In this document: one piece after another, positions 3,089 through 31,027 of the stretch
Position numbering within the stretch: the first letter of the stretch is position 1
How the letters are laid out: the number at the start of each line of letters is the position of its first letter
IMG/VR virus record: IMGVR_UViG_3300006045_000004
Location: 90,180-135,897 of that record
Strand: one strand, 5' to 3'
Length of the DNA: 45,718 bases
From: a virus
Translations under genes and position numbers: made by a program
The notes under the pieces: model-generated
Databases searched by the model: none
Seen by the model: only the letters and a program-made list of their open reading frames with translations
Told to the model about the DNA's origin: nothing

Positions 3089-3178
3089 GCGAGGTTGGTG
3101 TAATAGCAGCATAACTCCCTTCCATGAGTTATTACTCGGAGACAGGAGACGATAGGGGTGCAATTCCCCTACTTCGCA
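3089..3178 (+). tRNA. tRNA-Gly(TCC) with 19-nt BHB intron (3125-3143)
   Basis: GCGAGGT/ACTTCGC acceptor; central helix CTTC/GGAG, bulges CA|T and AC|A. Confidence 0.88.
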
Positions 3179-5878: not shown

Positions 5879-5896
5879 GATATAATATAATAACAT

Positions 5897-6079
5897 ACTG
5901 GGGTAGAATAGTCTGGTCTATTTCGGTGGGCTCATAAATGAGATATAAAAAAGTTTGAGTTAATGTTTGACAAAATATTTTATAAATAAAGTAAAATAAT
6001 AATTTATTGATAAGTTTTTAGTTACTACATATCTCATTGAGATACCCACAGAGCAATGGTTCAAATCCATTCCTCAGTA
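5897..6079 (+). tRNA. initiator tRNA-Met(CAT) with 107-nt BHB intron (5937-6043)
   Basis: A1-U72, GGG/CCC anticodon stem, purine11-pyrimidine24; helix CTCA/TGAG, bulges TA|A and AT|A, intron stem ATGAGATAT/ATATCTCAT. Confidence 0.87.
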
Positions 6080-6174
6080 TTTTTACCATACAGATAATTA
6101 TTTGGGTAAATAAGTGGTTTATGGGATTGATTATCCTTGGGTTTCCATACCAATCAATAATCCTAAAATCAAAT

Positions 6175-6260: not shown

Positions 6261-6452
6261 GTGATATTTTTGAGTGATGTTAAGAAAAAAAATAGTTGTT
6301 ATAGAGATGATGTTACTTGTGAGAAAGTGATGGAGTTGGAAAGACAAGGTTTTTCTATTAAAGAAAGTGCTGAAGAGCTTGGTTGTTGTAAGTCCACGAT
6401 TACAAGTAGAAGAAAAGATTTTTATAATAAAAGATTATTAGAAGAGAATTAG
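6261..6452 (+). CDS. small helix-turn-helix DNA-binding protein
   Basis: GFSIKESAEELGCCKSTITSR HTH pattern. Confidence 0.65.
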   Translation: MIFLSDVKKKNSCYRDDVTCEKVMELERQGFSIKESAEELGCCKSTITSRRKDFYNKRLLEEN

Positions 6453-6454
6453 TT

Positions 6455-6541
6455 GGCAAGATGGGAGAGTGGTTTATTCCGTAGGTTTGCTATGCCTATG
6501 TTATCGAGAGGTAACCGCAGGTTCGAATCCTGCTCTTGTCG
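6455..6541 (+). tRNA. tRNA-Ser(GCT)
   Basis: Long variable arm, G73, loop TTGCTAT. Confidence 0.9.
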
Positions 6542-6545
6542 TTTT

Positions 6546-6617
6546 GACCCATTGGTGTAGTGGTTATCATATTTGGTTGTCAGTCAAATGAAAGGGGTTC
6601 AATTCCCCTATGGGTCG
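6546..6617 (+). tRNA. tRNA-Asp(GTC)
   Basis: GACCCAT/ATGGGTC acceptor, G73, loop TTGTCAG. Confidence 0.9.
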
Positions 6618-6620
6618 TTT

Positions 6621-6741
6621 GGCGGTGTGCCAGAGTTTGGTTTATTGGTTCGGTCTTGAATTAATGATATGCTCATTCATATCATAACAAGATAACCGAT
6701 GGTATTAGTAGTACACAGAGGTTCAAATCCTCTCACCGTCG
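6621..6741 (+). tRNA. tRNA-Ser(TGA) with 33-nt BHB intron (6661-6693)
   Basis: Helix CTTG/CAAG, bulges AA|T and AT|A, long variable arm, G73. Confidence 0.87.
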
Positions 6742-6753
6742 TTTTTTCATTAA

Positions 6754-30522: not shown

Positions 30523-30531
30523 AATTTTATG

Positions 30532-30552
30532 GAAACATTTATATACTATGAG
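30532..30552 (+). promoter_or_regulatory. BRE-TATA promoter of ncRNA/tRNA cluster
   Basis: GAAACATTTATATACTATGAG. Confidence 0.75.
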
Positions 30553-30567
30553 ATACAATAGTATATT

Positions 30568-30704
30568 GTTACAATAGTTTTTGAGTGGTTTTTGTTTAAT
30601 CTCCCACTTATATTGTAACCTTTCTATGTTATTCAGTTGTTGGTGTGGTTTTTCGTAAGGTCTTTCGTCTAATTTATTCCTTATTATTTCCCCACATCAA
30701 CGAT
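30568..30704 (+). ncRNA. two tandem hairpins, candidate structured RNA leader
   Basis: GTTACAATA/TATTGTAAC and GTTGTTGGTGTGG/CCACATCAACGAT stems directly after the promoter. Confidence 0.45.
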
Positions 30705-30705
30705 T

Positions 30706-30834
30706 CGGTGTGTAGCTCAGTTTGGTAGTAGCACTCGACTGTAGCGAAGGAGTAGCAATCGCTGTATAGGTTAACATATATGGCTATCCTTCACAGATAT
30801 CGAGGGGTCGTCGGTTCAAATCCGACCATGCCGA
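30706..30834 (+). tRNA. tRNA-Tyr(GTA) with 54-nt BHB intron (30745-30798)
   Basis: C1-G72 (archaeal/eukaryal identity element), helix CTGT/ACAG, bulges AG|C and AT|A. Confidence 0.9.
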
Positions 30835-30887
30835 TTTAAATCAAAATCCTTGTACAAGATTTGATTTAAGACCACAATTGTGGTTGA

Positions 30888-31010
30888 AGCTTAACTGGGG
30901 AACTTCATAAAAACTCTTGGTTCGAATCCAAGTATTCAGCTATTGTAGTCTGAATGTAGATTAAATGGGAAATCGTTATGATGACAGAAGTTCGATTCTT
31001 CTGTAAGCTA
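30888..31010 (+). ncRNA. two-headed tRNA-like RNA (two T-arms, cross-paired acceptor stems, no anticodon loop)
   Basis: T-arms CTTGG-TTCGAAT-CCAAG and AGAAG-TTCGATT-CTTCT; stems TATTCAG/CTGAATG, AGCTTA/TAAGCT, CATAA/TTATG; D-arm GATT/AATC. Confidence 0.7.
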
Positions 31011-31027
31011 TTTTTTGAGGTGATGCT

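Follow-up and report, generated by a model that had tools for sequence, protein, structure and literature searches.

A 123-base element at positions 30888–31010 (+ strand) of a tailed-virus genome contains two canonical T-arms, arranged as an outer acceptor/T-arm unit and an inner, circularly permuted tRNA body that share one anticodon-type stem and leave no anticodon loop. This is the architecture that a first-pass annotation of the DNA had proposed, and all of its helices and loops were located in the sequence and the pair list. We tentatively interpret the element as the gene for a stable, non-decoding tRNA mimic, a reading in which our confidence falls somewhat short of even. We would class it with the YrlA-type tRNA mimics, as a variant that has two heads, lacks Ro60 and belongs to an archaeal virus.

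To our knowledge, YrlA-type tRNA mimics are known only from bacteria and phages, and each has a single tRNA-like head attached to a handle that binds Ro60. If expressed, the element would be the first mimic of this type in an archaeal virus and the first with two tRNA elbows and without Ro60, and the tRNA fold would appear as a modular building block that is reused in viral RNAs. Because the virus also carries 22 tRNAs, several with bulge–helix–bulge (BHB) introns, and RtcB, the element bears on the protection or manipulation of the host tRNA pool by archaeal viruses, a little-known subject. Covarying arrays in jumbo phages suggest a wider, unannotated class that is missed by standard tRNA finders and Rfam.

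Genomic setting and architecture

The window, i.e. the whole stretch of DNA that was analysed (45 718 nt), corresponds to bases 90180–135897 of a 135.9 kb IMG/VR virus record. The GC content of the virus is ∼27%, and terminase, portal, head protein and tail sheath were found, as in a tailed virus. An archaeal host is supported by the BHB introns in the viral tRNAs and, as a second line of support, by a histone gene that we take to be present from a remark in the first-pass annotation. ARAGORN in intron mode gave 22 tRNAs, with introns in those for Met, Ser and Tyr; Pro and Trp are the sole isotypes missing from the set. The tRNA-Met (107 nt intron; window 5896–6080) and the tRNA-Ser(UGA) (33 nt intron; window 6620–6742) were called in intron mode only. 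At least three tRNAs with BHB introns are present in the virus, together with an RtcB tRNA-splicing/repair ligase (G000:C1:80772–82025, equivalent to L189:4773–6026; Pfam, 194 bits) encoded ∼8 kb upstream of the window start and 39 kb from the element. No splicing endonuclease gene was found in the virus. At window 3089–3178, a 90 nt gene resembling tRNA-Gly(UCC) has an odd T-loop and, separating its T-arm from the anticodon stem, ∼24 surplus bases; it scores 42 bits with the Rfam tRNA model, is left unassigned by ARAGORN (anticodon 'tc') and may contain a non-canonical intron.

The element lies within a 505 nt non-coding gap, with a 128-residue ORF on one side and a 51-residue zinc-ribbon ORF on the other. 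The order on the + strand is TATA-like box, hairpin pair, tRNA-Tyr, element and tRNA-Cys, all in + orientation. As read from the sequence, the archaeal TATA-like box TTTATATA (30538–30545, + strand) heads an RNA operon as its putative promoter and is followed on the same strand by a hairpin RNA, tRNA-Tyr, further hairpins and the element. The tRNA-Tyr(GUA) gene (30706–30834, + strand), directly upstream of the element, scores 44.1 bits with the Rfam tRNA model and has a ∼54–57 nt intron at 37/38 in a canonical BHB; the intron was identified using the intron mode of ARAGORN and the BHB was found at 30737/30791. The spacer between tRNA-Tyr and the element (30835–30886) consists largely of two perfect small hairpins (30838–30867 and 30871–30884); a promoter-like TTTAAG occurs within them at 30864, and a processing spacer is an alternative candidate role.

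All parts of the element are on the + strand. The outer acceptor stem, of the A1–U72 type, has its 5′ strand at 30888–30895; bases 30888–30893 and 30895 pair with 31003–31009 (pair probability 0.7–1.0), with A30894 bulged. A stemless, G-rich outer D-region (30896–30905), assigned from the sequence, overlaps a rival helix that involves 30900–30906 (see below). The 5′ strand of the shared anticodon-type stem (30906–30910; inner positions 39–43) forms five Watson–Crick pairs with its 3′ strand in the pair list (30976–30980; inner positions 27–31). Between these strands lie, in order, the inner variable loop of 5 nt with the T1 arm (30911–30932), the capped inner acceptor (30933–30956) and U8–A9, the D-arm and G26 (30957–30975). 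The T1 arm (30916–30932) has a canonical T-loop with G53–C61 (P = 0.85), and ARAGORN places the variable loop and T-arm in this way in a de-permuted construct. The inner acceptor, of the C1–G72 type, pairs 30933–30939 with 30950–30956 (7 bp including one G·U; P = 0.5–0.8) and is capped by a 10 nt loop consisting of a discriminator-like C30940 and a further 9 nt. The inner D-arm (30959–30974), assigned from the sequence and from the ARAGORN cloverleaf of the de-permuted unit, has a 4 bp stem and an 8 nt loop with A14, A15, G18 G19 and A21. A15–U48 and G26–A44 match tRNA tertiary pairs when the sequence is read in this register, and 28 of the 28 inner-unit pairs are intact, as are the tertiary nucleotides. 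The shared stem is followed by the outer variable loop of 5 nt and the T2 arm (30981–31002), which has a canonical T-loop; the 5′ strand of the arm competes for the rival helix (30987–30993), and an Rfam scan by E-value matched an 18 nt T-arm fragment at 30985–31002, where the T2 arm itself spans 30986–31002. The outer acceptor 3′ strand and the discriminator A31010 (31003–31010, from the pair list) complete the element. No ORF of ≥40 residues in the ORF list overlaps it on either strand.

A T6 tract (31011–31016, + strand) directly follows the discriminator and, judging by its sequence, is likely to be an archaeal transcription stop. A further 11 nt separate it from the zinc-ribbon start codon, and the 17 nt from the discriminator to this codon hold a Shine–Dalgarno-like GAGGTGAT. 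Located last in the RNA operon, and so close to the start codon and GAGGTGAT, the element could be a processing or termination signal: an RNase P/tRNase Z cleavage site plus T6 stop that would end the tRNA-Tyr operon and determine where the zinc-ribbon mRNA downstream begins, with no separate function for the RNA that is cut out. Established precedents for tRNA-like punctuation exist elsewhere, for example mascRNA, and the nearest relative of the virus has merely an unrelated 133 nt spacer at this site. However, such a signal would require no more than one minihelix or an ordinary tRNA, and a complete second tRNA body with its tertiary nucleotides intact would be unneeded; we consider this explanation improbable.

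Permuted order and proposed maturation

The inner unit (30906–30980) comprises an entire tRNA body whose order is permuted. Its 3′ half (30906–30940) precedes its 5′ half (30950–30980) on one strand, and 9 nt separate the discriminator from the 5′ half; such an arrangement defines a permuted tRNA gene. When the halves were swapped back and joined by any 7 nt loop, ARAGORN called a regular 73 nt tRNA cloverleaf with U8, a 4 bp D-stem, an 8 nt D-loop with GG, a 5 nt variable loop and a canonical T-arm. ARAGORN made no call for the outer unit by itself.

Several more conventional identities were tried and rejected. ARAGORN, run with and without introns, made no call of an ordinary, intron-bearing or split tRNA at 30888–31010, and Rfam RF00005 gave nothing at the element at the gathering threshold or at E ≤ 10. 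A disguised tRNA-Pro or tRNA-Trp was sought by hand: a Pro-like heptamer occurs at 30895–30901 and Trp- and Pro-like triplets occur inside T1, none of them with a flanking stem. The first-pass annotation had found no terminal BHB, and this was borne out by an exhaustive h-B-H-B-h scan, which recovered the BHB of the neighbouring tRNA-Tyr and at the element gave chance matches with 2 bp flanks. Splicing of the leader and trailer through a BHB or bulge–helix–loop was ruled out by the scan and by hand checks of four registers.

In known permuted tRNA genes a BHB is located at the paired termini and the product is a complete tRNA (PMC3218864). Since the element has no credible BHB and no encoded anticodon loop, it is not a classical permuted pre-tRNA. 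Removal of its leader and trailer by a non-canonical cut and joining of the ends, perhaps by RtcB, could still turn it into a decoding tRNA, in which case the trailer (30981–30987) would supply a 7 nt loop with anticodon GAC (Val). The order of 3′ half, short spacer and 5′ half on one strand resembles that of the Thermofilum and red-alga permuted tRNAs (PMC3218864), the bases after 30980 make a plausible anticodon loop with U33 and A37, and ARAGORN accepts the construct as a tRNA-Val. The viral RtcB, the BHB-intron tRNAs and the gap in the viral set at Pro and Trp would also fit. Against this, no loop is encoded between the halves, the Val(GAC)-like loop is obtainable from the trailer only by a cut without a known recognition motif, and no junction offers a BHB or bulge–helix–loop with credible flanks. 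This sole obtainable loop would provide Val, which is already covered by the viral UAC, and not the missing Pro or Trp; the virus has no splicing endonuclease gene; and the trailer comprises a canonical T-arm and an acceptor strand, which would be needless if discarded. We regard maturation to a decoding tRNA as very improbable.

For the non-decoding mimic that we prefer, the proposed pathway begins at one promoter, from which the element would be transcribed together with the upstream intron-bearing tRNA-Tyr as far as the T6 stop. The outer acceptor/T-arm minihelix would be recognized by the RNase P and tRNase Z of the host, both ends would be trimmed and CCA would be added, giving an RNA of ∼126 nt with two tRNA elbows. 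The inner 7 bp acceptor might also be cut and CCA-tailed, as in Mycobacterium smegmatis YrlA, to yield a two-piece RNA. Lacking an anticodon, the RNA can neither decode nor be cleaved by anticodon nucleases. Its most likely action would be to occupy proteins that recognize a tRNA by its elbow or by its acceptor end; enzymes of tRNA processing or modification and a tRNA-targeting host defence are candidate targets, and the RNA may act with the viral RtcB in a theme of tRNA protection or repair.

Folding, chance and conservation

Nearest-neighbour folding supported the proposed fold in part. The outer acceptor, T1 and the inner acceptor were backed by the energy model; T2 (P = 0.24), the D-arm (P = 0.22) and the shared stem (P = 0.04) were disfavoured, being outcompeted by a rival 7 bp helix between 30900–30906 and 30987–30993 (P ≃ 0.7). 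The minimum free energy was −27.2 kcal mol−1, compared with −17.1 kcal mol−1 for the proposed fold alone and −21.4 kcal mol−1 for the best structure with the proposed helices enforced; the folding z-score was −1.35. The second head is proposed on the basis of its canonical T-loop sequence and of analogy, and not of thermodynamics.

Taken at face value, the minimum-energy and ensemble preference for the rival helix over T2 and the shared stem describes a one-headed mimic on a rod. T2 would be unformed, and the leader and trailer would form an interrupted rod (6 + 3 + 7 bp) bearing the T1 hairpin and the capped acceptor hairpin, a shape nearer to the classical Y-RNA handle with a tRNA-like head. 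Such a rod, however, would break the inner anticodon stem and the D-arm geometry of a perfect inner cloverleaf and would leave the canonical T2 loop sequence unexplained. T2 is kept with covariation in the phage analogues described below, and energy models commonly misfold AU-rich tRNAs. We judge the rod to be distinctly improbable.

The likelihood of a chance arrangement was estimated by keeping both T-arms fixed and shuffling the remaining 89 nt 300 000 times. A capped 7 bp acceptor arose in 3% of the shuffles, the acceptor and D-arm together in 9 × 10−4 and the acceptor, D-arm and a correctly placed shared stem in 7 × 10−6; the outer acceptor arose in 13%. Since none of the 300 000 shuffles reproduced the whole, the topology is not due to chance. 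Within the 136 kb genome, the combination of T-arm, capped 7 bp acceptor and D-arm is a single case among 375 loosely defined T-arm-like hairpins. Two separate JGI assemblies share the element at 100% identity, and the 505 nt gene spacing is the same in one ENA contig and one Logan contig; identical independent assemblies and equal gene spacing show that the element is not an assembly artefact.

Homologues with compensatory changes, whose absence the first-pass annotation had named as one refutation of its proposal, were not found for the element's own sequence, and covariation is confined to the analogous phage family. In IMG/VR, an exact 21-mer and an exact two-T-loop pattern gave no homologue and a D-loop-anchored pattern gave tandem tRNAs only. 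An exact 24-mer had no match in 185 579 GTDB genomes, a result that also led us to reject an attachment-site copy of the 3′ half of a host tRNA. A pattern with anticodon-less spacing gave three chance matches in JGI metagenomes, a synteny search via the neighbouring 1261-residue protein gave no homologue, and a model built from the element alone (R1) had no match in 20 TerL-related records of more distant viral relatives. A recent duplicate of a viral tRNA was rejected as well, no part of the element resembling any of the 22 tRNAs above the T-arm background. In the nearest relative virus (Logan SRR27460153; terminase 66% and neighbouring protein 72% identical), the unrelated 133 nt spacer (L002:14365–14498) replaces the 505 nt RNA island at window 30523–31027. 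The missing island comprises the hairpins, tRNA-Tyr and the element, and the flanking ORFs and tRNA-Cys are conserved.

This distribution fits a rearrangement relic: recombination among tRNA genes would have left a tidy-looking chimera without function in an RNA island of recent acquisition, for example when the junction of a tandem tRNA pair was captured inside the anticodon arm of another tRNA. In our searches the element is a singleton, and the closest relative lacks the entire island; a degenerate outer D-arm and a bulged outer acceptor point the same way. A tandem-tRNA junction also mimics the permuted unit locally, and such junctions are false positives of searches of this kind (PMC4201824). 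On the other hand, the two acceptor stems differ, so that the element is not a simple tandem duplicate, and recombination would have required two precise breakpoints with one 5 bp stem reused in both senses. The intact pairs and tertiary nucleotides of the inner unit, the lack of resemblance to the viral tRNAs and the T6 tract exactly after the discriminator also speak against a relic, as does selection on the same design in phages. We consider a relic to be unlikely.

Two-headed phage RNAs and comparison with known systems

The first-pass annotation recognized no described RNA class with this topology. A search of the published literature likewise found no description of a two-headed topology, but the inner module follows the plan of YrlA and the whole plan recurs in jumbo phages. 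IMG/VR was scanned with a degenerate two-T-loop pattern and the matches were filtered for complementarity. The complete two-headed connectivity was found in unrelated bacterial jumbo-phage records, at L099:8817–8950, L065:4488–4621, L055:6033–6162 and 6438–6572, L168:595–725, L176:192–337, 348–505 and 1480–1607, and L040:8920–9056. Model R1 aligns over its full length to L099, L065, L055, L039 and L115 at 30–39 bits. Many of the 'one-headed' R1 matches (e.g. in L033 and L053) are junctions of adjoining tRNAs and were set aside. The element and the phage RNAs share an outer acceptor, a 5 bp shared stem, a variable loop, T1 and a 7 bp capped acceptor in the 5′ part and a D-region, the shared stem, a variable loop, T2 and the outer acceptor in the 3′ part; this order of parts was confirmed by a hand parse of the phage RNAs. 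The phage RNAs sit among tRNA genes without ARAGORN or Rfam annotation, and no TROVE gene was found in these jumbo-phage records.

The phage RNAs alone have a full outer D-arm, an encoded CCA and an outer acceptor whose 3′ strand carries a one-base bulge, with a reduced inner D-arm, high GC content and an arrangement in tandem arrays; the sole D-arm of the element belongs to the inner unit, and after A31010 comes T6 in place of a CCA. A model from four phage RNAs retrieved further copies in tandem arrays and also sister RNAs with the same tRNA chassis, in which a long hairpin replaces the inner tRNA body. In the phage alignment, which was fitted to the model and so somewhat inflates the figure, 96% of cells are paired, compared with 62% when shuffled and 41–47% when the partners are slid; all seven of the seven inner-acceptor pairs are changed on both sides. 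Model R2 scores the element at 34.3 bits, compared with 27–44 bits for ordinary viral tRNAs. Judged from sequence, the likeness of the element to the phage RNAs may be convergent.

A wider proposal, which seems possible but rather unlikely to us, is that bivalent tRNA mimics form a distinct RNA class that viruses of Archaea and Bacteria reached independently, acting as a decoy or a bridge. Such RNAs would consist of an acceptor/T-arm chassis in which the site of the anticodon loop is occupied by a second tRNA body, circularly permuted and sealed. With two elbows and no anticodon they might be uncleavable decoys for tRNA-targeting defence nucleases or acceptor-end toxins; alternatively, they might bridge two tRNA-binding proteins, alongside the virus-encoded RtcB.

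Other RNAs were noted in viral contigs. Tandem arrays of unannotated tRNA-chassis RNAs occur at L166:1501–1784, L168:595–1635 and L176:52–1607 (IMG/VR jumbo-phage records G021, G023 and G024); the chassis has an acceptor with a one-base bulge, a D-arm, a T-arm and an encoded CCA, its helices covary, and a permuted tRNA body or a long hairpin takes the place of the anticodon loop. These array records, too, contain no TROVE gene. A viral contig of 265 kb carries the gene for a full type-A RNase P RNA of the bacterial kind (L071:3063–3440, − strand; 170 bits); ∼430 nt from it lies a permuted tRNA-like RNA with one head and a closing stem (L071:3869–3962, − strand), which matched no Rfam family at the gathering score. 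A full-length tmRNA (L033:2039–2422, − strand; 125 bits) is present in a 28 kb tRNA-rich viral contig.

Among previously described RNAs, the small stable RNAs rnaC and rnaD of phage T4 (species 1 and 2) resemble the element in adjoining viral tRNAs, and rnaC ends in a T-arm-like hairpin. They were rejected as relatives, having at most one T-arm, no capped acceptor and no R1 match. Two-piece tmRNA has a permuted gene order, and the tRNA-like domain of tmRNA, like the outer unit of the element, combines an acceptor and T-arm with a stemless D-loop. Unlike two-piece tmRNA, the element lacks a tag reading frame and pseudoknots, for which 123 nt leave no room; ARAGORN made no tmRNA call and the Rfam tmRNA matches are two T-arm fragments at ∼6 bits.

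Like the permuted tRNA genes of Cyanidioschyzon merolae and those for tRNA-iMet and tRNA-Tyr of Thermofilum pendens, the element has its 3′ half upstream on one strand, and its intervening sequence of 10 nt compares with 1–85 nt in known permuted tRNAs (PMC3218864, PMC3978253). The setting is archaeal with BHB introns nearby, as in the T. pendens cases. Unlike these genes, it has no BHB and no anticodon loop, and its 'leader' and 'trailer' constitute a tRNA-like domain.

The closest comparison is with YrlA (RF02553), the partner of Ro60/Rsr. The YrlA plan of T-arm, capped acceptor-like stem, D-arm and closing stem is found in bacterial and phage Y RNAs, which carry tRNA-like modifications; in M. 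smegmatis YrlA, with a 7 bp acceptor, RNase P cleavage and CCA tailing have been described (PMC4201824). Membership of the family itself was rejected: RF02553 has no match at the element at E ≤ 10 (gathering threshold 69 bits), and its best matches in the genome, at 18.5 bits, are junctions between tandem tRNAs. TROVE/Ro60 (PF05731) has no match in the 136 kb record, which is 85% complete, and none of the partner proteins TROVE, DUF2828 and DUF7788 was found in the virus. Unlike YrlA, the element has no Ro60-binding helix or GNCGAA motif, its handle being a second acceptor/T-arm domain, and it belongs to an archaeal setting, for which no YrlA is described in PMC4201824. The inner unit nevertheless follows YrlA in its sequence of variable region, T-arm, capped acceptor and D-arm, its closing stem takes the place of the anticodon stem, tertiary nucleotides including the 15:48 pair are kept, and its inner acceptor has 7 bp, as in M. 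smegmatis YrlA.
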